The notes: generated by a model from the sequence alone, not told the origin. A stretch of 64,000 nt of DNA from an uncultured Gammaproteobacteria bacterium (GCA_964467625.1 CAYXRM010000001.1:516986-580985), one strand, 5' to 3'. Counted from the stretch's first letter, positions 2,603 to 24,605 are shown. Program-made: numbers and translations.

Positions 2603-3539
2603 TTAAAACTTTTGAAACCTCATCGTATGTGTTTAATAGAACTAATTTTGAGCGCAATTTAGAAGCATTTGGGACGGATGAAATGTAGTAGGGGTAAAAT
2701 TTTCTCATATATTTAATTGCGTTGATTTCGCCCCTGTATTGAATTTCTCCTTCAATATGTTTTTTTAGCATTTCAAGCTTTGATGAAATATCAGGCTCTT
2801 TTGTGATTATTCCTTTTTCAAAAAAGTCTTCAATTCTTTTTGGAAAGGAAAAATCCCCCACAAATCCTCTGCCGATTGCAACTCCGTCTGCGCCCGTAAG
2901 TTCAATACAGTTTTTTACATCTTCTATGGTTGTAATGTCCCCGTTTGCAAAAACAGGAATTTTTACACTTTCTTTTAATTTTTTAATATCTTCCCAATTG
3001 GCGCTGCCTGAGTACATTTGTGCCCTTGTTCTGGCATGGAGTGTTATAAAATCTACCCCTTCCCCTTCAAGCATTTTTGCAAATTCTATGTAATTTTTTT
3101 CATTATTTGAAAACCCAAGCCTAAATTTTACACTTAAAGGAATTTTTATTGCACGCCTTACAGAAGATATGATTTCCCTTGCAAGCGGAATGTTTCTCAT
3201 AAGGGCACTTCCGTCAGACCCTTTTACAATTTTATTAACCGGACAGCCGCAATTTATATCTATAACAGAAGCCCTTTCTTCAAGCATTTGCGCTGCATGC
3301 GCCATAAGGTGCGGCTTGTGCCCAACAATTTGAAATGATAGAGGGTATTCAAATTCTTCAAACTTGATTATGTTTGAATTTGGAACCTGATTAATGGCTT
3401 CTGAGGATATCATCTCTGTTGTTAAAAGCGTGTTAATTCCACCATAACTTCTTATAAGCCCTCTGTATACAATGTCTGAAATGCCGGCAAGAGGGGCTTG
3501 TATAACTTTAATTTTTTTTATGTCCGTGTTTTTTGTCAT
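2571..3539 (-). CDS. dus: tRNA-dihydrouridine synthase
   Basis: 322 aa. Dus family motifs: APLAGISD near the N-terminus, IDINCGCP, SVKFRLG, ITLHARTR. Confidence 0.85.
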   Translation of the reverse strand: MTKNTDIKKIKVIQAPLAGISDIVYRGLIRSYGGINTLLTTEMISSEAINQVPNSNIIKFEEFEYPLSFQIVGHKPHLMAHAAQMLEERASVIDINCGCPVNKIVKGSDGSALMRNIPLAREIISSVRRAIKIPLSVKFRLGFSNNEKNYIEFAKMLEGEGVDFITLHARTRAQMYSGSANWEDIKKLKESVKIPVFANGDITTIEDVKNCIELTGADGVAIGRGFVGDFSFPKRIEDFFEKGIITKEPDISSKLEMLKKHIEGEIQYRGEINAIKYMRKFYPYYISSVPNASKLRSKLVLLNTYDEVSKVLNDMVCLYASL

Positions 3540-14729: not shown

Positions 14730-15893
14730 ATGATTAAAATTGGTACCGCACTTTTTGAAGCGGCTGAACAATTGGAAAGAGAAAAAGGAATTTCAAAAGA
14801 AGTTTTAATTGAAGCGCTTCAAGACGCCCTTGTTGCGGGATATAAAAAACATATTAAAGATAAAGATGCTGAAAATGTTGAAGCTATTATGGATGAAGAA
14901 TCAGGCGAAATCGGTGTTTTTAGAACAAAACTTGTTGTTGAAAATGTTGAAAATCCTGATGTTGAGATTTCTCTTGAAGATGCAAAAGAAATTGACGATG
15001 AAGTTGAACTTGAAGATGAAGTTAAAATTGAAGTTACACCCGAAGACTTTGGCAGAATTGCGGCACAGTCTGCAAAACAGGTTATCACTCAAAGAATTAG
15101 AGAGGCTGAAAGAAAACTTGTTTTGGATGAATTCTTATCTAAAAAAGGCACTCTTATTACAGGTATAATTCAAAGAAGAGATGAGAGAAATGTTATTGTT
15201 AATATAGGTAAAACTGATGCTATAATGCCTGCAAAAGAACAACTTCCGGGGGAATATTACAAACCCGGGAACAGAATAAGAGTTTTTGTTTTGAATGTTA
15301 AAGAAACAACAAGGCTTCCGCAGGTTATTGTTTCTCAAGCGCACAGTGAAATTGTTCGTGAACTTTTTGAACTTGAAGTTCCTGAAATTGAAGACGGTAT
15401 TGTTGAAATTAAGTCAATCGCCCGTGAAGCAGGCTTTAGAACGAAACTTGCAGTTTGGTCAAATGACCCTTCAGTGGATTCCGTTGGTGCTTGTATTGGG
15501 CCAAGGGGTTCTAGAATTCAAACAATTGTGGGCGAATTGAAAAATGAAAAAATTGACATTGTAAGATACTCGGAAGACCCTGTTGAATACATTGTAAATG
15601 CGCTTTCTCCTGCAAGAATAGTTTCTGTAGATATTTTGGCGGACGAAGAAAATAAACACGAAGCTTTCGTTATTGTTCCTGATGATCAACTTTCTCTTGC
15701 AATTGGCAGAGAAGGTCAAAACGTGCGTCTTGCACACAGATTAACCGGTTGGAAGATTGATATTAAATCTGAATCTCAAGCGGCTCAAATGGAAAAACAA
15801 GTTAAAGCTGAACCTGAACAAGTGCAGGAAGCCGAAATTGAACAAGCACAAGAAACAGAGGCTGAAGCTTTAACAGAAACATCTGAAGGGTAA
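14730..15893 (+). CDS. nusA: Transcription termination/antitermination factor NusA
   Basis: 387 aa with an N-terminal domain, an S1 domain (GTLITGIIQRRDERNVIVNIGKTDAIMP) and KH domains (GACIGPRGSRIQ, AIGREGQNVRLA). The tail is acidic. Confidence 0.9.
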   Translation: MIKIGTALFEAAEQLEREKGISKEVLIEALQDALVAGYKKHIKDKDAENVEAIMDEESGEIGVFRTKLVVENVENPDVEISLEDAKEIDDEVELEDEVKIEVTPEDFGRIAAQSAKQVITQRIREAERKLVLDEFLSKKGTLITGIIQRRDERNVIVNIGKTDAIMPAKEQLPGEYYKPGNRIRVFVLNVKETTRLPQVIVSQAHSEIVRELFELEVPEIEDGIVEIKSIAREAGFRTKLAVWSNDPSVDSVGACIGPRGSRIQTIVGELKNEKIDIVRYSEDPVEYIVNALSPARIVSVDILADEENKHEAFVIVPDDQLSLAIGREGQNVRLAHRLTGWKIDIKSESQAAQMEKQVKAEPEQVQEAEIEQAQETEAEALTETSEG

Positions 15894-15901
15894 GGACTTT
15901 A

Positions 15902-16759
15902 ATGAGGGTTATCATAGCAGGCTATGATAAAATGCTGGCAGCTTTGGTGAACGGTGCTGTTGACACAGGTCATGAAGTTGTTGGGGTTATTAGAATTGAC
16001 AGGGTAAAATACAATCCTTTTACCCTGTTTTTTAAAGATATTTTTGCGCCGTCACGTGACTTGAGCTATATTAAAAGTAAAAATCTTTATGAAATAAAAG
16101 CAAAAAGCGTCAATTCAAAAAAGTTTCAAAAAGAAGTCTTAAAACTTGGGGCAGAAGTTATTCTTGTGGGCTCTTGGAGTGAGAAATTTTCAATTGAAAC
16201 AATTGAACTTACAAAATATGGGGTAATTAATTGTCATCCTTCACTTTTGCCAAAGCACAGGGGTGCAAATCCTTATTTTTGGCAAATTTATTTAGGCGAA
16301 GCCAAGGCGGGAATTACTTTTCACTATATGACAGAAAAATTGGATGCAGGGGAAATTCTTATGCAGGGGGCATTTGACATTTCTTCTTATATGACAGGCG
16401 GAGTGCTTAGAACAAAAAGTGCGAAAGTGGCGGAAGTTATGGTCGGACAATTATTAGCTGATTTAGAAGAAAATATAATCATTCCGATTGCCCAAGACGA
16501 AACAAAAGCAACGTATGACAGGTGGGATAGTGATTTAAGAATTATAGATTTTGAAATGGAGCCGCCTGTTTGCCTGCACAATAAAATAAGAGGGTTAATT
16601 CCTTTTTGTGTACCTATTGTAAGGTATAAAAATTTTACATATAAAATTAAGCGGTCAGAACTTATTTTGGAAGAAAATAAACAATGTGAAATTATAAAAG
16701 AGGGGAAATATCTTTTTGCAAGGTATAAAAATTGCACCTTAAAATTGACCCTTGTATAA
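15902..16759 (+). CDS. Formyltransferase family protein (Fmt/ArnA-N-like, not canonical Fmt)
   Basis: 285 aa. INCHPSLLPKHRGANPYFWQI is the formyltransferase catalytic HxSLLPxxRG motif, and a later LDAGEIL is present. I did not see the TQPD..GRG segment expected of Fmt. Confidence 0.6.
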   Translation: MRVIIAGYDKMLAALVNGAVDTGHEVVGVIRIDRVKYNPFTLFFKDIFAPSRDLSYIKSKNLYEIKAKSVNSKKFQKEVLKLGAEVILVGSWSEKFSIETIELTKYGVINCHPSLLPKHRGANPYFWQIYLGEAKAGITFHYMTEKLDAGEILMQGAFDISSYMTGGVLRTKSAKVAEVMVGQLLADLEENIIIPIAQDETKATYDRWDSDLRIIDFEMEPPVCLHNKIRGLIPFCVPIVRYKNFTYKIKRSELILEENKQCEIIKEGKYLFARYKNCTLKLTLV

Positions 16760-16780
16760 ATTTTTGTTAAGATAATTGGT

Positions 16781-17578
16781 ATGATTACATTTAAACAAAC
16801 TCTTACATATTCTGCCCTGCGTATGTTTTTTGGCGAAATTAAAGATTTTTTAATTATGACAGGAAACATAGGGAAAGATTTATCAAGGGTTTTTTATTAT
16901 ATTTTGCGTCTTAGAATAAATTTAAAAATAATGATAGAACAGGCTTCAAGGTTTGCCGTGGATAGTTTACCCATAACTTTAACAATTGTTGGGATGACAA
17001 GTGTGATTATTGCCATGCAAATTGCGCCGGAGCTTGCAAAACAGGGGGCGGAAAATTATATCGGAATGCTCTCTGCCCTTGTTATGATAAGGGAATTATC
17101 CTGTATTATGGCAGGGTTTGCAATAATTTCAATGATAGGTTCATCCTTTGCTTCAGAACTTGCTTCAATGGCGGTGGGCGAGCAGATAAGCGCAATGAAG
17201 GTTCTAAAAGTTGACCCTATAGAATACCTTATTGTTCCAAGGTTTTTGGCGGGTGTTTTTATGATGCCTTTCGTTTTTATTTTGGCTTCTTTTGTGGGGC
17301 TTGTGTGTGCAGGGGCAATATCTTACCTGACGGCGGGGCTTAGCCCTTTAAATTATATAACTTCAATTTGGCAAGGTTTATATATAAGAGATATTATGAT
17401 TGCAATGTTGAAATCAGCGTTTTTTGGCGGCACAATTGCGCTTATAAGCTGCTCTTGCGGATATTCAACAAGGGGCGGAGCAAAAGAAGTCGGTATTGCA
17501 ACAACCAAAGCGGTTGTTTGGAGTTTTGTTGCAATTGCGGTTTGGGATTATATTTTCGCTGTCATATTTTATTTATAG
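16781..17578 (+). CDS. mlaE: Mla/Ttg2-type ABC transporter permease
   Basis: 265 aa, polytopic. MlaE-like segments: VDSLPITLTIVGMTSVIIAMQ, GGAKEVGIATTKAVV. Confidence 0.8.
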   Translation: MITFKQTLTYSALRMFFGEIKDFLIMTGNIGKDLSRVFYYILRLRINLKIMIEQASRFAVDSLPITLTIVGMTSVIIAMQIAPELAKQGAENYIGMLSALVMIRELSCIMAGFAIISMIGSSFASELASMAVGEQISAMKVLKVDPIEYLIVPRFLAGVFMMPFVFILASFVGLVCAGAISYLTAGLSPLNYITSIWQGLYIRDIMIAMLKSAFFGGTIALISCSCGYSTRGGAKEVGIATTKAVVWSFVAIAVWDYIFAVIFYL

Positions 17579-17587
17579 GAAAAAGTT

Positions 17588-18316
17588 ATGGGTATAATTG
17601 TTAAAAATTTGGTTAAATCTTTTGACGGTAAAAAAGTTTTAGATGAAGTTTCCTTTTCGGTGCAGGACGGTGAAACTCTTGGAGTTGTCGGTTTTTCAGG
17701 AAGTGGAAAATCTACGCTTTTAAAAATTATCTCCAACCTTTTATATTCTGATTCAGGGGATATTGCAACAAGTGCGGGCGCTGACATTGCAATGACATTT
17801 CAATATTCAGCTTTGTTTGATTTTTTAGATGTTTATCATAACATTGCCTTTCCTCTTTTGGAGAGAAAAGAATATAAGGGTAAATACACAAAAGATGAAA
17901 TTAAAAAAATTGTAAAAGAAAAATTGGCGCTTGTTGGCCTAGAGGGGATTGAAGAAAAATTTCCTTCTGAATTATCAGGCGGTATGCAAAAGCGTGTTGG
18001 GTTTGCCCGTGCAATTGTAACCAACCCCAAAACAATTCTTTATGATGAACCAACAGCAGGTCTTGACCCTGTAAGCTCCACTTTGATTGAAGATTATATT
18101 GTGCGCCTTAAAAATGAACTGAATGCTGCCTGTATTGTGGTGACACACCAAATGTCCACAATTAAAAGGGCATGCGATAATGTAATTTTATTGTATGAAG
18201 GAAAAATTGTTTTTCAAGGGAAAACAGAAGAATTTTTAAAAGGCGACAACCCTTACACAAAACAGTTTATAGAGGCATCTTTAGACGGGCCTATGGAAAT
18301 TAAATCAGCGATATAA
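17588..18316 (+). CDS. mlaF: Mla-type ABC transporter ATP-binding protein
   Basis: 242 aa. Walker A GFSGSGKST, signature LSGGMQKRV, Walker B ILYDEPTAGLD. Confidence 0.85.
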   Translation: MGIIVKNLVKSFDGKKVLDEVSFSVQDGETLGVVGFSGSGKSTLLKIISNLLYSDSGDIATSAGADIAMTFQYSALFDFLDVYHNIAFPLLERKEYKGKYTKDEIKKIVKEKLALVGLEGIEEKFPSELSGGMQKRVGFARAIVTNPKTILYDEPTAGLDPVSSTLIEDYIVRLKNELNAACIVVTHQMSTIKRACDNVILLYEGKIVFQGKTEEFLKGDNPYTKQFIEASLDGPMEIKSAI

Positions 18317-18401
18317 TTTAAAATATTTTTTTTAAAAAAGTGCTTCAAACCCTTATTATCTTTGCTTTTTAAGCTTTATTTTTATGCCAAATTTTAAAAT
18401 C

Positions 18402-18410
18402 TGCTATGAT
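18402..18410 (+). promoter_or_regulatory. Candidate extended -10 element ahead of the MuF-motif gene
   Basis: TGcTATGAT at 18402-18410. AAAGGA RBS at 18435-18440, ATG at 18446. Confidence 0.25.
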
Positions 18411-18445
18411 AGATATATTAAGTATTTCTATTAGAAAGGAAATAT

Positions 18446-19825
18446 ATGGCTAAATATATTTTTCACAGTGAAAAAAGCAAAACAACATGCGCAGAATGCA
18501 CAAAACTGGATGGGAAGGTCTATGGCGATATAAACAATATTCCAAAATTGCCAATTCATCCAAATTGCAGATGTTGGATAGAAACTATTGAAGATAAAAA
18601 ATCAACAAGTCACCCTTGCGATTGCAGGAAAAGATTGGAAGTTATTCAAAATAATATAGAAAATCTTATTATTAATTTAGGTAATATATCAAAAAGTATA
18701 AATAATGAAATATATGAAACAGAAATTAAGATTGATGATGCGAAAGAAAACAACAATAAAAAAGTAAATCTTCAAAAGGTACAAAATAAATTGGTAAATC
18801 TAAAGGAAGAATTTCAAACGTTTACTAAACAAACAAAAGATTTAAACACGGATATTTTATTTTTAAAAGATAATGCAAACGAGCTTGAACACACAAAAGA
18901 AGAATGCAATATAGATAAAGAATTAAGTGAAATAAATAAAAAAGCAAAAACTTTTTTAAGTGAAATCAATAGATATTCTGAAAACTTAAAGCAATTAAAA
19001 GAAGATGTTAATTGGGTTGAGAGAGCTGAAGCATTGAAACAAAACGGAACTACAACAGGTATTGCCGCAGATGTTGATATCGGTTCTAAAACTTCTAAAA
19101 ATACTAATTGGTTTGGGAAGGTTGAATTGAGTGAAAAGGAAGTAAATAAAAATGTTGACTATAAGCAAAAAGCAATAGAATTTGCTATAGGTAATAACTA
19201 TAATAAAATCTTGTATAAAGCTGCAAAAAAATTTTCAGGAGAAGACACTGCAGGCATGCTTGATATAGCCCATGAAAAAAGAAATGATGAAGAATATACA
19301 AAAGATGCAATTAAATTAAAGAATTGGGATGATCCAAGAGTTGCATCAAATAAGAAGAAAATAAAAGAAAAAGTATCAAAAGAATTTAAGGATTATGGGT
19401 TTAACATAGATGAAATCCCCGGATATTTCTTTAAAAGTACTTCTGAACCCGTTCAAAGACTTATTCAAAATGAAGATTTTAGAAATATTATAAGAAAACA
19501 TAAGGCGAATATTTTAAAAGGAGAAAATTTTTCTGGCGGTTTTCCAGAGTATACTAACCAAACAAATGCTCCTTGGTTGATTAATAAAATGTTGAAAGAA
19601 AACAATTTTAAAAATGCTTTTGGAATAGTTGAACTTTTGACCCCTTTCTTTGATAAAGAGGGTAATTTGCATATTAAAATGTTTGATACTTATGATTTTA
19701 ATAAAGGTGAAAATATTCTTGTGGAAGCAGGCAGAGTTAAAATGCTAGAAAAAGAATTAAAACCCTTTTTTACAATCCATGATATAATTATCAAAAAAGA
19801 AGAGCTTAAATATTTTGGGTTGTAA
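18446..19825 (+). CDS. MuF/SPP1-gp7-motif protein with coiled coil and unknown C-terminal domain (candidate polymorphic toxin)
   Basis: 459 aa. Residues 15-44 (CAECTKLDGKVYGDINNIPKLPIHPNCRCW) match the C-terminal zinc-ribbon-like signature of the phage Mu F / SPP1 gp7 head morphogenesis domain. Residues ~60-200 are heptad-rich coiled coil. I do not recognise residues ~200-459. No signal peptide. Confidence 0.5.
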   Translation: MAKYIFHSEKSKTTCAECTKLDGKVYGDINNIPKLPIHPNCRCWIETIEDKKSTSHPCDCRKRLEVIQNNIENLIINLGNISKSINNEIYETEIKIDDAKENNNKKVNLQKVQNKLVNLKEEFQTFTKQTKDLNTDILFLKDNANELEHTKEECNIDKELSEINKKAKTFLSEINRYSENLKQLKEDVNWVERAEALKQNGTTTGIAADVDIGSKTSKNTNWFGKVELSEKEVNKNVDYKQKAIEFAIGNNYNKILYKAAKKFSGEDTAGMLDIAHEKRNDEEYTKDAIKLKNWDDPRVASNKKKIKEKVSKEFKDYGFNIDEIPGYFFKSTSEPVQRLIQNEDFRNIIRKHKANILKGENFSGGFPEYTNQTNAPWLINKMLKENNFKNAFGIVELLTPFFDKEGNLHIKMFDTYDFNKGENILVEAGRVKMLEKELKPFFTIHDIIIKKEELKYFGL

Positions 19826-19830
19826 AAAAG
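19761..19830 (+). repeat. Junction repeat, copy A (intact: toxin 3' end plus start of next gene)
   Basis: Encodes KPFFTIHDIIIKKEELKYFGL* and overlaps TTG-GGT-TGT-AAA (MGCK) of the next ORF. Related copies lie at 20385-20462 and 22322-22400. Confidence 0.7.
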
Positions 19831-20381
19831 AAATAACAGAATATTTTTTAAGGGTTTTTTGTTTTGCCGTTGTTGTAAAATGTGCTTTTGATATTGTCTG
19901 CATAATCGGAATAATAGTTTTCTTACCTTTTTCAGTATTGGTGCTTAAGGTTTTTGATCTTTTGTTTATAATATTTGATAAATGCGGATATTATTTTTTG
20001 GTTGAAAGTTTTGAATACAGTTATGATGTCTATATATTTTCTTTTTTTGGGTTATATTTTCTATCAAAAATATTAGGTATATTTAAAAAAATAAACAAAT
20101 TAAACTTTTTTCTTTCCCTTTTTATAATATGTTTAATAAGCTATATGCTTGTTTTGTTTGGCAGAATAAATTTTTTAGTAGATAAAAATACTTATGAATT
20201 GGGGCTTAGATATTTTTATACAATGTATTTATTAATTCCTTGTTATTTATTGTATAAAGTTTTTAATTTCTTATCTTCAAAATTTATCATCTTTGAAAAA
20301 ATCGGCTATTACACTTCAATTGAATTTTATAAAAATTTGTACAAGAAAATATCTAATCATGGTAAGCATGATAATAAATAA
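19815..20381 (+). CDS. Small multi-pass membrane protein (candidate cognate immunity)
   Basis: 188 aa with a TTG start overlapping the upstream stop by 11 nt. About 5 hydrophobic helices, very AT-rich. No family recognised. Confidence 0.4.
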   Translation: MGCKKEITEYFLRVFCFAVVVKCAFDIVCIIGIIVFLPFSVLVLKVFDLLFIIFDKCGYYFLVESFEYSYDVYIFSFFGLYFLSKILGIFKKINKLNFFLSLFIICLISYMLVLFGRINFLVDKNTYELGLRYFYTMYLLIPCYLLYKVFNFLSSKFIIFEKIGYYTSIEFYKNLYKKISNHGKHDNK

Positions 20382-20384
20382 CTA

Positions 20385-20462
20385 AAACCTTTTTTTTACC
20401 ATACATGATATAATTATCAAAAAAGAAGAACTTTAACACTTATGGGGTGTAAAATGCAAAAA
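20385..20462 (+). repeat. Junction repeat, copy B (orphan toxin tail plus MGCK start)
   Basis: 20386-20436 reads NLFFTIHDIIIKKEEL*. That gives 14 of 16 residues identical to the tail of the 459-aa protein, closed by an AAA to TAA change relative to copy C. ATG-GGG-TGT-AAA follows. Confidence 0.65.
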
Positions 20463-21197
20463 AGAAACGTTGCATACATACTAATGATTATTATCAAAAT
20501 TATAATGATTATAATATTTGTGCCTTTTTCTTTTGAGCTTATTTTTGGCTCGCTTTCTCAGCCATATGAAACTGTGGTACAAAATGCATCTATAATTTTA
20601 ATTGGGCTTATTCCTGTTTTGATATGCCACTTTCTTTCAAAGTGGGTAAAAAAAACAACTAATATTTTTGTTAAAATATGTTCAATATTATTATCTGCTT
20701 TTTTATTGCTTATACTTCCCATATATGCACTGATCGGGTTGTTTAATTGTGCTTTGATTTGTGATGATCCGCCTATAAACCCTTATAATAAGTCAAGATA
20801 TGAAGTAATGCTTTCAAAGATGCCAAGTGCAAAAGAGCGTGCCAAACATTTTCCACATAGAATTCCAAAAGATGCTAAAGATTATTATTTTCTCCGTGAA
20901 TGGTCTTTTAGTGGATATAATGTGCATTATTTAAAATTTAGTACAAATGAAAATTATATTAATAAAATAATTAATGATAACAAAGATAAAATTGTTCATA
21001 AATTAAATTCAAACAATGTGGATGATTATTATAAATTCGTTCCATATAGGGCGCTGAGCGATAGTGCCAATTGCACTATATACATTTTAAAAAATGAAAA
21101 CAACGACAATGATTATACACCAGGAATTATAACTTCAAAATCAAATGAAATTCTTTTTTTCTATTCTAATTTTGATTTAAAGGGAAACAGATATTGA
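20442..21197 (+). CDS. Membrane-anchored protein, island paralogue 1 (candidate orphan immunity)
   Basis: 251 aa with three N-terminal TM helices and a ~143-aa soluble domain. Paralogue of 22378-23133. The true start may be the internal ATG at 20454 (GGGGTG upstream). Confidence 0.5.
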   Translation: MGCKMQKRNVAYILMIIIKIIMIIIFVPFSFELIFGSLSQPYETVVQNASIILIGLIPVLICHFLSKWVKKTTNIFVKICSILLSAFLLLILPIYALIGLFNCALICDDPPINPYNKSRYEVMLSKMPSAKERAKHFPHRIPKDAKDYYFLREWSFSGYNVHYLKFSTNENYINKIINDNKDKIVHKLNSNNVDDYYKFVPYRALSDSANCTIYILKNENNDNDYTPGIITSKSNEILFFYSNFDLKGNRY

Positions 21198-21259
21198 TAT
21201 TTATGAATAATAAATTTTTAAAATATTTAATAAAAGCGAAGGTATGATATTATAAATAC

Positions 21260-21763
21260 ATGCACAAAGAAATTTCTGGACTGATTAAATATTTGTCTTT
21301 AGTTTTTGTTCTGCAGGGCATAGCTTATATTTCCTGTTATTTTTGGATGTGTATATTTTTTAGCAGTTTAGTGGATGAACAAGATGAGTTTTTAATAAAG
21401 CTTTTCTCTTTTGATTTTTTTTATGAAATATTTCCAATAATTCTTTTTATTGTTTTGACATTTATTGCTTCTCTTTTTATTATCTTGACTAAAACATTTC
21501 TTGATAAAAAAGAAAGTAAATACCTGACTTGTTTTTTTGATAATCTTTTATACCCGACAATTGCATTGTTGATTGTAGTTTTATGCAGAATATATTTTAA
21601 TCTCTATATTTCGTACCTGATTATGTTTATCGCTATATATTTTGTGGGGTTTATAAGAAAGTTTGCAAAGCCTTTATATAATCACATATCTATTGTCATT
21701 TTTCTTTTGTGGGGATTGGTTATTTATTGCATAATGGGAAACCGTTGTATCTTTAATTTTTAA
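21260..21763 (+). CDS. Small multi-pass membrane protein
   Basis: 167 aa with 4-5 hydrophobic helices. No recognisable family and a weak RBS. Confidence 0.35.
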   Translation: MHKEISGLIKYLSLVFVLQGIAYISCYFWMCIFFSSLVDEQDEFLIKLFSFDFFYEIFPIILFIVLTFIASLFIILTKTFLDKKESKYLTCFFDNLLYPTIALLIVVLCRIYFNLYISYLIMFIAIYFVGFIRKFAKPLYNHISIVIFLLWGLVIYCIMGNRCIFNF

Positions 21764-22235
21764 ATTGTTGAAAATTTAATTCATCATCAAGAACACCATT
21801 TTGTTTATAAAAAGTATATAGATATAAAAATCCGCTCAAATCTTTTATGCGGGTTTTTATATATTCATATTTATCAGAAGCGGCAGCAAGGCAAGGAAGG
21901 TAAGGATGGCAGTTTTTTTCATAGGTTTGCTTTAATAAAATATTATGCTGTTTAATAAATTCTTCCCACTTTTCTTGAGATCTCAAAAGTTCTTCATATT
22001 CAGCTTTTGGAAGAATATCCTTTGCCCCTTTAATTGTTTTTTTAATCTCTTGATTATATTTTTCATATCCTTCATAAGTGCACAACATCATCATACGGTC
22101 TGTTTGATAGTTTGCATTAATACAATTTTGAGTTTCATTGTCAATTTTTTTAATGGTTTCACTAGATGTGCAATATGACGCAAAAGCAGGGTTGGTTGCA
22201 AATAAAAATATTGTTAAAAGAAGAAATTTTTTCAT
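21753..22235 (-). CDS. Secreted DUF1311 (LprI-like) family protein
   Basis: 160 aa with signal peptide MKKFLLLTIFLFATNPAFA. Four spaced Cys and the pattern T..MM..C......Y...I........L......L..SQ..W..F resemble DUF1311/LprI. Confidence 0.45.
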   Translation of the reverse strand: MKKFLLLTIFLFATNPAFASYCTSSETIKKIDNETQNCINANYQTDRMMMLCTYEGYEKYNQEIKKTIKGAKDILPKAEYEELLRSQEKWEEFIKQHNILLKQTYEKNCHPYLPCLAAASDKYEYIKTRIKDLSGFLYLYTFYKQNGVLDDELNFQQFKN

Positions 22236-22253
22236 AAATTAATTATAAGTTTA

Positions 22254-22377
22254 AGCGGTTTTTATATCAAGGAAAGGAAACCGCCAATTCATCCAAATTA
22301 CAAGTGTTCAAAGCAAATTTAAAAGGCTTTTTCACTGTTTGTGAGATAATAATTAAAAAAGAAGAACTTAAACACTT
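22254..22377 (+). pseudogene. Internally deleted relic of a second MuF-motif gene
   Basis: 22254-22322 reads SGFYIKERKPPIHPNYKCSKQI*, compared with LDGKVYGD..LPIHPNCRCWIE in the intact gene. 17 nt are identical (GCCAATTCATCCAAATT, 22283-22299 vs 18549-18565). In another frame, 22322-22377 reads KGFFTVCEIIIKKEELKHL, compared with the tail KPFFTIHDIIIKKEELKYF. Confidence 0.45.
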
Positions 22378-22400
22378 ATGGGATGTAAAATGCAAAAAAG
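22322..22400 (+). repeat. Junction repeat, copy C
   Basis: A tail-like segment followed by ATG-GGA-TGT-AAA-ATG-CAA-AAA-AGA-AAC, almost identical to copy B from 20421 onward. Confidence 0.65.
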
Positions 22401-23133
22401 AAACGTTGCATACATAATAATCAATATTATCAAAATCATAATGATTACTATATATACACCTTTTTCTTTTGTGCTTATTTTGTTTACTATCTGTAGTCCT
22501 TATGAAGCTATGATATGGAATATGGTTATATTTCTTATTGGGCTTGTTTTTATTTTTGCATGCCACTTTCTTTTAAAGTGTGTAAATAAAACAACCGATA
22601 TTGATACTCGAATATGTTCAATATTATTATCCATTATTCTTTTATTTATTTTACTTATATATATGTGTGCCGGGTTTCAAAAATGCACTAATATAAATTC
22701 AGATCCGCCTATAAACCCTTATAATAAGTCAAGATATAAAGCAATGCTTTCAAAAATGCCAAGTGCAAAAGAGCGTGCCAAACATTTTCCACATGGAATT
22801 CCAAAAGATGCCGCAAATTATTATTTTTTCCGTGACAGGTCTTTTTTTGAAGACAAAGAACATTATTTAAAATTCAGTGCAAATGAAAATTATATTAATA
22901 AAATAATTAATGATAACAAAGATAAAATTGTTCATAAATTCAATTTAAATAATATAAGTGATTATTATAAATTCGTTCCATATGACGGCTTAAATGACAG
23001 TGCCAATTGCACTATATACATTTTAAAAAATGAAAACAATGACAATGATTATACATCAGGAATTATAACTTCAAAATCTAATGAAATTCTTTTTTTCTAT
23101 TCCAATTTTGATTTAAAGAAAATAAGACGCTGA
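22378..23133 (+). CDS. Membrane-anchored protein, island paralogue 2 (candidate orphan immunity)
   Basis: 251 aa, colinear with 20442-21197. By manual alignment there are 46 differences in the first 108 residues and 25 in the last 143. Confidence 0.5.
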   Translation: MGCKMQKRNVAYIIINIIKIIMITIYTPFSFVLILFTICSPYEAMIWNMVIFLIGLVFIFACHFLLKCVNKTTDIDTRICSILLSIILLFILLIYMCAGFQKCTNINSDPPINPYNKSRYKAMLSKMPSAKERAKHFPHGIPKDAANYYFFRDRSFFEDKEHYLKFSANENYINKIINDNKDKIVHKFNLNNISDYYKFVPYDGLNDSANCTIYILKNENNDNDYTSGIITSKSNEILFFYSNFDLKKIRR

Positions 23134-23192
23134 CATTTGTGCGGCATAAAAGTTTCTTATAGCCCAAAAAGGGGATTTATTAACTTTCTTAT

Positions 23193-23222
23193 TTGGCAAA
23201 AAAATGTTTTTCATTGTATAAT
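23193..23222 (+). promoter_or_regulatory. Candidate sigma70-type promoter for mlaD-lpxK
   Basis: TTGGCA (23193-23198), 18 nt spacer, TATAAT (23217-23222), 30 nt upstream of the ATG at 23253. Confidence 0.4.
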
Positions 23223-23252
23223 TAGTCGTGAGATAGAATGAAAGGCCCCTAA

Positions 23253-24605
23253 ATGACCGTAAATAGAAAAGTTTCTTCATCTTTAAAAGTCGGGATTTTG
23301 ACGATTGGGGCGCTTCTTATTCTTATTTTTACCGTTCTTTGGATAAAAGGAAGAAGTTTATCTTCAGGGGAGAGGATTGAAGTTATTTTCCATGATATAA
23401 ACGGTATCCGTGCAGGCTCCGGCGTGCAGATGATGGGTCTTAGAATCGGGCAAATTGAAGAAATTATACCCGTTGTAAACGGTAAAGATAGTCATGTTAA
23501 AATTCGTTTTGTTATAACAGAAAAAGGGGTTAAAGTTCCGGAAGCCTCGACAATTTCAATTCAACAGTCAGGGTTAATTGGGGAACAGTTTTTGGAAGTT
23601 ATGCCCCCGAAGGTTGAATATCTTTATCTTGAAACTTCAAGAAATAAAACATTAATTGAAGAAAATCAAGAAATTTATATGGTTTTATCAAATGAACTTA
23701 AAAGAATAGGCAGAGTTGATATTGCAAATGTTATTCCAAAGGCGGCTGCCCCACTTGAATACCGTTCACAGTTGAAGGGGCAAAACGTACTTAAAATTGG
23801 ATACATTGTTGATCTTCCGGGGTTGATTTTGGATAAGGAAAATTTAAACGCAAAACTTATTCAAAATAAACTTGTTTTTGAAACAAAAAATGGGGTTAAA
23901 CTTGAGATGCCAAACACAAATTCTCCCTATACGGTGATTGAACCGATGAGAATAAGTGATTTTCTTGAATTGCAATATAAAACAGCACACTCTTTGACAT
24001 CTATGAATGAAAGAGTTATGGAGATTTTATCGGACGACTTTATTGCCGATATTAAAGAATCCATGAACAATATTAATGAAATTACCCAAAAGGCAAATTC
24101 CACAATTGAGAAGGCAAACACTTTGATTGATTCTTCAAAAGACGAAATTGATGAAATTCTTGTCCAAACTTCAATTTTGACAAAGAAACTGAATGTCTTG
24201 TCGGATAATGCAAACGCTCTTGTTTCAAGTGAGGAATTGAAGGGTGCAATTAAATCTGTTAACAGGTTTGCAAAAAATGCAAATTCATACCTTGAAAAAC
24301 CAGAAGCAAAAGAAATGTTTGAAAATTTGAATGAAATTTCAAGAAATTTGGCGGACATTTCTTGCTATGTAAACGAATTTACAGGGGATGAAAAGTTAAG
24401 AAATAATTTAAAAGAATCTGTTGAAAATATAAACAAAGCAATGAAACAGGTGAACACAAATTTGGCGGAAATAAATTCTGTAAGCGGGGAAGAAAAGCTT
24501 TCAATCAACAATGCAATAACAGACGCTATTGTGACAACAAGAAATCTTAAAAAATTCTCAGAAAAATTGAATAAAAGATTTTTATTATTCAGGTTAATGT
24601 TTTAG
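23253..24605 (+). CDS. mlaD: MCE-domain protein (MlaD-like) with long helical C-terminal extension
   Basis: 450 aa. N-terminal TM (LKVGILTIGALLILIFTVLWI). MCE domain (INGIRAGSGVQMMGLRIGQIEEI...SIQQSGLIGEQFLEV). The last ~200 aa are coiled-coil-like. Confidence 0.75.
   Translation: MTVNRKVSSSLKVGILTIGALLILIFTVLWIKGRSLSSGERIEVIFHDINGIRAGSGVQMMGLRIGQIEEIIPVVNGKDSHVKIRFVITEKGVKVPEASTISIQQSGLIGEQFLEVMPPKVEYLYLETSRNKTLIEENQEIYMVLSNELKRIGRVDIANVIPKAAAPLEYRSQLKGQNVLKIGYIVDLPGLILDKENLNAKLIQNKLVFETKNGVKLEMPNTNSPYTVIEPMRISDFLELQYKTAHSLTSMNERVMEILSDDFIADIKESMNNINEITQKANSTIEKANTLIDSSKDEIDEILVQTSILTKKLNVLSDNANALVSSEELKGAIKSVNRFAKNANSYLEKPEAKEMFENLNEISRNLADISCYVNEFTGDEKLRNNLKESVENINKAMKQVNTNLAEINSVSGEEKLSINNAITDAIVTTRNLKKFSEKLNKRFLLFRLMF

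Follow-up and report, generated by a model that had tools for sequence, protein, structure and literature searches.

A toxin-gene 3' stub that probably heads an orphan immunity cassette in a polymorphic-toxin-type island of a Gastranaerophilales bacterium

The stretch of DNA analysed here, called the window throughout, comprises 64,000 nucleotides and contains a low-GC island between the genes mlaF and mlaD (Table 1). The GC content is 21-30% inside the island and 32-42% in its flanks, and homology to related species ends at about 18325-18363. The island consists of an intact gene for a 459-aa protein followed by a gene for a 188-aa protein, a short toxin-gene remnant (stub B) followed by the first of two genes for 251-aa proteins (251a), two unrelated genes, and a collapsed toxin gene (copy C) followed by the second 251-aa gene (251b). 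Its neighbours between 14 and 28.7 kb include rimP, nusA, mlaEFD, lpxK and bioB-like genes; neither T6SS genes nor a recombinase ORF were seen in this interval, and there are no phage genes at the island. The NusA protein has 88-96% identity to proteins that carry the names Candidatus Galligastranaerophilus or Gastranaerophilales.

Table 1. Features of the island (positions counted from the first letter of the window)
Feature	Position	Strand	Description
Low-GC island	18320-23250		Between mlaF (17588-18316) and mlaD (23253-24605), both assigned by Pfam
459-aa toxin-like gene, intact	18446-19825	+	N-terminal Zn-ribbon motif, coiled coil, C-domain
Reference junction A	19757-19830	+	Toxin tail ELKPFFTIHDIIIKKEELKYFGL* overlapping the TTG start of the 188-aa gene; has TGATATAAT at 19780-19788
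188-aa multi-pass membrane protein	19815-20381	+	TM segments; usual downstream partner, putative cognate immunity protein (class 1)
Stub B	20383-20441	+	Toxin-gene 3' remnant without start codon, TAA at 20434-20436; subject of this report
251-aa gene, copy a (251a)	20442-21197	+	Three TM segments and soluble C-terminal domain; putative orphan immunity gene (class 2)
167-aa multi-pass membrane protein	21260-21763	+	About five hydrophobic segments; inside the island
160-aa secreted protein	21753-22235	-	PF07007 LprI (lysozyme inhibitor) match, E 0.0018, below cut-off; adjoins copy C
N-terminal motif relic of copy C	22278-22308	+	KPPIHPNYKC against KLPIHPNCRCW; 26 of 31 nt identical to 18545-18575
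Stub C	22300-22377	+	Tail relic QVFKANLKGFFTVCEIIIKKEELK..., in a frame other than that of the N-terminal motif relic; has TGAGATAAT at 22342-22350
251-aa gene, copy b (251b)	22378-23133	+	72% aa and 81% nt identity to copy a; putative orphan immunity gene

In ten syntenic loci of related species (L064-L073, about 13562 onward), synteny extends up to mlaF and is followed by divergence; no homologue of the toxin, of the 188-aa or of the 251-aa protein occurs in these ten loci, and none of them gives an empty site. After mlaF, related Gastranaerophilales have unrelated DNA with prepilin-like N_methyl proteins and a holin-like gene, and half of the related contigs break off less than 1 kb from mlaF. 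The insertion site, at which the island separates mlaE-mlaF from mlaD, resembles a variable hotspot. Neither a population variant of this exact island nor an empty site was found; the closest relatives, at about 80% DNA identity, do not carry the island at all. The search for structural variants yielded a single other assembly, L002 (Logan SRR6824177, assembled independently), which is identical to the window over 5110 nt (15368-20477) and ends 35 nt into 251a, inside the repeat shared by B and C. Its end is probably an assembly break at that repeat.

Stub B lies immediately behind the stop codon of the 188-aa ORF (TAA, 20379-20381) and is read in another frame. Positions 20386-20433 translate as NLFFTIHDIIIKKEEL up to the stop codon that closes the frame, while the intact 459-aa gene, which ends at 19825, has the C-terminus ...KPFFTIHDIIIKKEELKYFGL*; 14 of 16 residues are identical. 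At the DNA level, a block of 26 nt, CATGATATAATTATCAAAAAAGAAGA, is exactly the same at 19778-19803 and 20404-20429. The first-pass annotation had claimed an orphan copy of the tail of the 459-aa gene behind the 188-aa ORF, and these identities bear it out. The start of the following gene is mirrored as well, as had also been claimed: the first codons of 251a (ATG GGG TGT AAA, 20442-20453) parallel TTG GGT TGT AAA at 19815-19826. A repeat search returned a three-member family, at 19742, 20368 and 22304, confirming that the junction is a repeated unit and adding a third copy (22300-22377) in front of the second 251-aa gene.

The window has a GC content of about 30%, and the shared block consists in part of AAAAAAGAAGA, which would suit a chance similarity in A/T-rich, low-complexity sequence. 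This candidate explanation, which the first-pass annotation had itself named as a possible undoing of its claim, was refuted. The 26-mer has no further match in the window when up to three mismatches are allowed, and no match in 100 dinucleotide shuffles; the only 17-mers that the 459-aa gene has in common with the rest of the 64 kb, on either strand, lie in stub B and in the relic at 22283. As the block has no further match and the shared 17-mers are confined to the two stubs, the repeat is real and not an artefact of low complexity. Moreover, the match runs on into the non-repetitive CATGATATAATTATC, a profile of the toxin C-domain recognises stub B (HMM positions 207-220 of 225, E 3e-4) and stub C (positions 196-222 of 225, E 4e-6) at the protein level, and the third copy and foreign loci have the same junction. 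The probability of mere coincidence is practically negligible.

At the intact junction A, the toxin gene is overlapped by its usual partner. In more than 25 loci, a homologue of the 188-aa protein (30-52% identity) is encoded behind a family gene or in overlap with it, with direct succession in L005, L006, L007, L011, L012, L015, L037, L039 and many more. The MGCK start of both the 188-aa and the 251-aa proteins was rejected as a sign of their homology. It is the DNA of the last toxin codons (Y-G-L-stop) in another frame, and it is common to both partner families because the downstream gene overlaps the toxin stop. A predicted RNA hairpin (19765-19785 with 19810-19830; -20 kcal/mol, z -5.4, 0 of 200 shuffles) pairs the PFFTIHDI codons of the toxin gene with its stop codon and with the TTG from which the 188-aa gene starts, and would be consistent with translational coupling of the 188-aa immunity gene (imm188) on a long transcript. 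As a general property of the repeat, the hairpin was rejected, since it is strong at junction A only and stubs B and C have no strong hairpin. Other loci of the family have a weaker, 8-bp form of it (UCCAUGAU / AUUAUGGA).

The 459-aa protein begins with a Zn-ribbon motif (residues 2-44) that resembles the end of the MuF/SPP1-gp7 domain (CxxC...HPNCRC), continues with a coiled coil at about 60-200, and ends with a conserved C-domain (residues 235-459, nt 19148-19825). Its 66 homologues are conserved over residues ~240-454, tail included, and differ in their N-termini; among 1.84 billion representatives, a profile search picked up 471 relatives of the C-domain (clusters at 50% identity). The C-domain is found behind the MuF-like motif, behind N-termini of the WxExxHPRDxxGxF type, and behind YD/Rhs repeats, where it occupies the extreme C-terminus of P0117 (1460 aa) and P0182 (1143 aa). 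In turn, a 409-aa protein of L052 has the same motif (CxxC...HPNCKC) and coiled coil, with Glyco_hydro_108 (GH108; E 9e-24) and PG_binding_3 at its C-terminus. Reciprocal domain shuffling of this kind is a signature of polymorphic toxins (Zhang et al., 2012, PMC3482391). The family carries this signature, because the C-domain swaps N-terminal regions (MuF-like, HPRD-type, YD/Rhs) and one and the same N-terminal region carries GH108 instead in L052. By domain architecture, the 459-aa protein is likely a toxin of the polymorphic type. By gene position downstream of family genes, as seen in the window and in L003, L005-L007, L010-L012, L015, L019, L028, L037 and L039, the 188-aa and 251-aa proteins are likely its putative immunity proteins.

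Most N-termini of the family (P0003-P0058) have the motif M(T/S)W(D/N)ExxHPRDxxGxFTF and not the MuF-like motif. Two long members, P0167 and P0203, have another N-terminal region in common, MGI(L/F)KG(Y/F)VNKENNSNRIYSREDIGKMSP... Neither of the two N-terminal regions has a Pfam match, and both may be unrecognised trafficking modules. In L010 (about 50-140 and 128-260), the family gene seems to be damaged twice: an insert of ~90 nt, GC-rich and bounded by GGAATTTCC / GGAAATTCC, breaks its first codons (MTKYIS...), and an internal deletion between two GAAGAATGCAA (EEC) repeats took away the HPNCRC motif along with some of the coiled coil.

The AF2 model of the C-domain is confident (pLDDT 92.5, pTM 0.89). 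Foldseek found nothing better than E 0.99 in the PDB and E 0.02 in BFVD for this model, and coiled-coil look-alikes only for the full-length 459-aa model; a profile search of PDB sequences with the C-domain returned nothing, and the C-domain has no match in Pfam or NCBIfam. With the MuF polymorphic toxins of temperate phages (Jamet et al., 2017, PMC5576092) the protein has in common the CxxC...HPNCRC motif, a toxin-like C-terminal domain and an immunity-like gene behind it. It was nevertheless rejected as a strict MuF toxin, as it has only the last ~45 residues of the domain, below the cut-offs of both Pfam and TIGRFAM (PF04233, Phage_Mu_F: 18.9 bits against 29.6, profile positions 65-110 of 112 only; TIGR01641: 19.3 bits against 39.65), and differs from these toxins in lacking a prophage context, flanked as it is by mlaF and mlaD, and in having no relatives in the phage and viral-contig collections searched. 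PHROGs gave weak head-protein matches to the N-terminal motif only, and searches of 2.9 million viral contigs (IMG/VR) and 50,697 phage genomes yielded no member of the family.

The similarity to a phage head-morphogenesis motif at the N-terminus, a C-domain without Pfam, PDB or BFVD match, and the failure to find a signal peptide, a known secretion domain or a recognisable export route would also fit a phage-derived or structural protein with a membrane partner, in which case the stubs would be ordinary pseudogene debris. We consider this very improbable, given that the viral and phage collections contain no relatives, that the genomic context of the family loci consists of chromosomal housekeeping genes, and that the C-domain ends YD/Rhs proteins while the N-terminal region can carry a GH108 lysozyme as an alternative. 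In addition, the downstream partners stay intact while the large gene decays, an asymmetry typical of toxin-immunity pairs.

The two 251-aa genes are both intact, without indels, at 19% nucleotide and 28% protein divergence in AT-rich DNA, with a dN/dS of 0.58 over the whole gene and of 0.41 for the soluble half. Intactness at such divergence, together with this dN/dS, argues that both have been maintained. At high similarity the 251 family is very rare, with four clusters among 5.8 billion proteins, and a scan with the 251-aa protein of a genome-contig collection from which the species of the window is absent gave only one distant Ruminococcus match (L001, 26% identity). The first-pass annotation had made its reading depend on whether any full-length gene stands in front of this family. 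Such genes exist: in two independent contigs, L003 and L010, an intact family gene ends ...GFFTVCEIIIKKEELKQYGL* and is overlapped, by 11 nt, by the gene for P0069, a 251-family protein that starts with MGCK and is 47% identical to 251a. More distant 251 homologues directly follow full toxin genes in L028, L019, L015 and L021.

Of the two genes between the 251-aa cassettes, the one for the 167-aa protein is not preceded by a toxin stub, and no fetched locus or family library contains a relative of its product; that it may be a further orphan immunity gene is an unsupported suggestion. The 160-aa protein has no sequence similarity to the 170-aa proteins of L052 and L007. It could be an orphan immunity protein against a lysozyme-type toxin, given the GH108 variant in L052. 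An NCBIfam search with the 188-, 251-, 167- and 160-aa proteins found nothing.

Copy C preserves pieces of both ends of a toxin gene. The N-terminal motif relic (22278-22308) has 84% DNA identity to the intact gene, including an exact run of 17 nt, and its frame ends at a stop codon at 22320-22322. The tail relic, stub C, is almost the same sequence as the L003 and L010 junction; its 5' 67 nt match these two best (score 56, against at most 39 for all others). The stretch ACAAGTGTT (22300-22308) belongs to both relics and is similar to GCAGATGTT of the N-terminal motif as well as to ACAAATGTT of the L003 tail. This looks like a microhomology deletion junction, from which we infer that ~390 codons were removed. 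An extension of the tail homology back to 22244, hinted at by tblastn, was rejected, because upstream of 22300 the DNA identity to L003 is only ~40%, while the same bases have the much higher identity to the N-terminal motif given above. Because the two relics stand in order and on the same strand, copy C (22278-22377) is a putative toxin gene deleted internally, an out-of-frame fusion of the two. Loss of an upstream toxin gene was one of two readings that the first-pass annotation had offered, and copy C, with its two relics, supports it, as do the full-length genes in front of the 251 family in L003 and L010.

The other reading was recombination at the junction, and stub B itself is a mosaic. 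Its 5' 47 nt (20383-20429) match the resident tail A best (score 38, against at most 30 for ~55 other tails), and its 3' 41 nt (20430 onward) match copy C best (score 37, against at most 16; A scores 15). The switch from A-like to C-like sequence falls at the end of the 26-nt exact block. By these affinities, stub B is a recombinant of the resident tail and a C-type junction.

Together, our data suggest that stub B is probably a dead toxin 3' stub that heads an orphan immunity cassette, within the immunity array of a polymorphic-toxin island in a Gastranaerophilales bacterium. In the model that we propose, a module of toxin A and imm188 would have entered an older module of toxin C and a 251-aa immunity gene (imm251) by homologous recombination, or would have converted it. 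The right-hand crossover would have fallen in the conserved tail, and for this reason the old toxin body would have been lost and the old immunity gene kept. Orphan immunity genes of this sort would protect against the matching toxins of competitors. Toxin loss and junction recombination, proposed as alternatives, then both hold as two sides of one process.

A different history is conceivable for the B cassette. The unit of stub and 251-aa gene may have been duplicated inside the island, with the 5' half of stub B converted by tail A, 600 nt upstream; no separate toxin would then have been lost at B, and only copy C would mark a lost toxin. Indeed, from stub to stop codon the B and C units form collinear direct repeats (72-87% identity, spacing 1936 nt), the 3' half of the stub and the first ~85 nt of the 251 genes are their most similar parts, and the rarity of the 251 family (four clusters) makes two independent acquisitions less parsimonious. 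On the other hand, the divergence of the two 251-aa genes, in DNA and in protein, is comparable to that between lineages, and the order of imm188 and then tail recurs in L006, L013 and L037 without a duplicated partner, which points to a general process of insertion or displacement. We regard duplication as rather unlikely. It would still need recombination in the tail and differs from the displacement model in history only; either way, whether through entry of a module or through a converted duplicate, the tail would have acted as the patch of homology.

Orphan tails are not confined to the window. The C-domain HMM, run against six-frame translations of 51 metagenomic loci and the earlier loci, found 36 full domains and 26 internal fragments that consist of the tail only. 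About 17 of the tail fragments are directly followed by an ORF for a TM protein whose start codon lies inside the last codons of the tail, and about 7 are terminal; stub lengths range from 42 to 396 nt. L015 has the order toxin, immunity gene (263 aa), tail, immunity gene (187 aa), tail, immunity gene (189 aa), tail, and L006, L013 and L037 have toxin, an immunity gene of the 188-aa type, and tail. In all four, the last tail is terminal, with nothing behind the last immunity gene. With the mosaic structure of stub B, such tail-separated immunity arrays, common as they are in other loci, speak for the claimed recombination at the junction. In L052, the GH108 toxin gene (1123-2352) is followed by the gene for a secreted 170-aa protein on the opposite strand (2349-2861, -), a tail (2904-3026) and a membrane-protein gene (3042-3341), which looks as if the GH108 toxin had replaced a C-domain toxin and left its tail and immunity gene behind.

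Displacement alone does not explain the terminal tails, nor does it explain that the junction from imm188 to the tail is nearly constant, at HMM positions 197-207, and falls within ~10 codons in several lineages. In L013 (3494-3559), L015 (3442-3507) and L037 (6156-6236), an immunity gene that ends ...NYIKRP* does so inside the start of the terminal tail, although the N-termini of these immunity proteins belong to different subtypes. This suggests that the 3' end of the immunity gene and the tail travel as a unit, or that the immunity genes are mosaic.

One might conclude that the tail is a dedicated site for cassette exchange, an active recombination site and no scar, at which mobile immunity cassettes are moved by Campbell-type recombination or by a recombinase, as in an integron. 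Arrays such as those of L015, L054 and L049 are bounded by tails at every cassette edge, the terminal one included, the NYIKRP* junction is the same in three loci whose immunity N-termini differ, and in stub B the exact block lies between the A-like and the C-like side, as a crossover predicts. Yet neither the island nor the interval from 14 to 28.7 kb has a recombinase gene, the variable length of the stubs contrasts with defined att sites, the stubs have no inverted-repeat structure, 26 nt of identity are marginal for RecA-dependent exchange, and deletion of imm188 by recombination between A and B should be suicidal. We therefore hold a dedicated exchange site to be improbable and retain the displacement model.

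Why a piece of the toxin gene is kept at all may have to do with expression. The H-D-I-I codons of the tail (CAT GAT ATA AT-) form TGATATAAT, a perfect extended -10 element (TGnTATAAT). It is found at 19780-19788 in A and at 20406-20414 in B, with TGAGATAAT as its counterpart in C (22342-22350), in each case 28-36 nt before the start of the immunity gene. TGnTATAAT is present in 41 of 57 tails. The codon for Ile213 is ATA in 47 of 55 sequences, against 43 of 152 at three neighbouring Ile positions (Fisher p = 1e-13, with relatedness ignored). The YGL/HE subfamily is without the TATAAT element; the shortest stubs, stub B among them, still have the extended -10 element. A generic scan for promoters and terminators gave 31 promoter-like sites where 35 were expected, and missed the element because it requires a -35 hexamer. 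From these signals, the toxin tail can be read as a candidate internal promoter, a purine-rich stretch and the embedded start codon of the immunity gene. The stub would then persist because it carries the expression signals of the orphan gene, selection for whose expression would keep the tail, and the TGnTATAAT element and the start codon probably explain why stubs are retained. More tentatively, and with considerable doubt, the last ~20 toxin codons might be a portable module that combines a homology patch of the RecA type, an extended -10 promoter and an overlapping start codon.

The best-known parallel are the orphan immunity arrays of V. cholerae T6SS loci, which arise by sequential displacement of effectors in a model where recombination is anchored in conserved sequence and the 3' end of an effector can be shifted downstream (Kirchberger et al., 2017, PMC5361080). 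As in these arrays, one intact pair (the 459-aa and 188-aa genes) is followed by immunity genes without effectors (251a, 251b), and elsewhere homologues of these orphans form pairs with intact effectors (P0069 in L003 and L010). However, the V. cholerae arrays lie in the 3' region of a T6SS cluster, and there are no T6SS genes at 14-28.7 kb in the window; the toxin family is uncharacterised and the host a Melainabacterium (Gastranaerophilales); and what remains here is invariably the conserved C-terminal tail with the immunity start overlapping it, while arrays elsewhere end in a tail.

Displaced cassettes in tandem behind a full-length gene, with short homology to the main gene that allows recombination, are also a feature of contact-dependent systems, namely the orphan cdiA-CT/cdiI and rhs-CT/rhsI modules of CDI and Rhs loci (Poole et al., 2011, PMC3150448; for displacement of Rhs C-termini, Jackson et al., 2009, as cited in PMC5361080). 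These orphans keep a complete alternative toxin domain and a piece of the conserved core upstream of it, whereas the stubs described here consist of 14-55 codons of the extreme 3' end, and the profile spans of stubs B and C (207-220 and 196-222 of 225) do not amount to a complete C-terminal toxin domain. As so few toxin codons are left, such an orphan can give immunity only and is no reserve toxin. The recombinase-associated acquired interbacterial defence clusters of Bacteroidales, rAID-1, have a XerD-like recombinase at the 5' end and integron-like intergenic repeats (Ross et al., 2019, 10.1101/471110). They resemble the island in being orphan immunity arrays of gut bacteria with repeats between the cassettes and skewed GC content, but here no recombinase is encoded at 14-28.7 kb, and the repeats are toxin tails of variable length (42-396 nt).

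Orphan stubs and the displacement of effectors that leaves orphan immunity genes behind are already well known from T6SS, Rhs and CDI loci; what is new is the putative toxin family of gut Melainabacteria, previously undescribed. It was found in Gastranaerophilales-like contigs of gut and rumen metagenomes, and no described toxin systems of this lineage were found. The family adds a putative toxin domain to the interbacterial weapons, with 471 clusters, a fold predicted with confidence and unmatched in the PDB, and membrane partners of two classes. Its many stub-headed cassettes are a ready data set on how immunity genes outlive their toxins, and the conserved TGnTATAAT element would explain in a simple way why the same part of the toxin gene is retained every time. 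If the portable module is real, the terminal tails and the immunity-to-tail junction that is common across lineages would find their explanation in it, and the immunity genes of these bacteria would be self-expressing cassettes in an integron-like, tail-bounded array that is independent of a recombinase.
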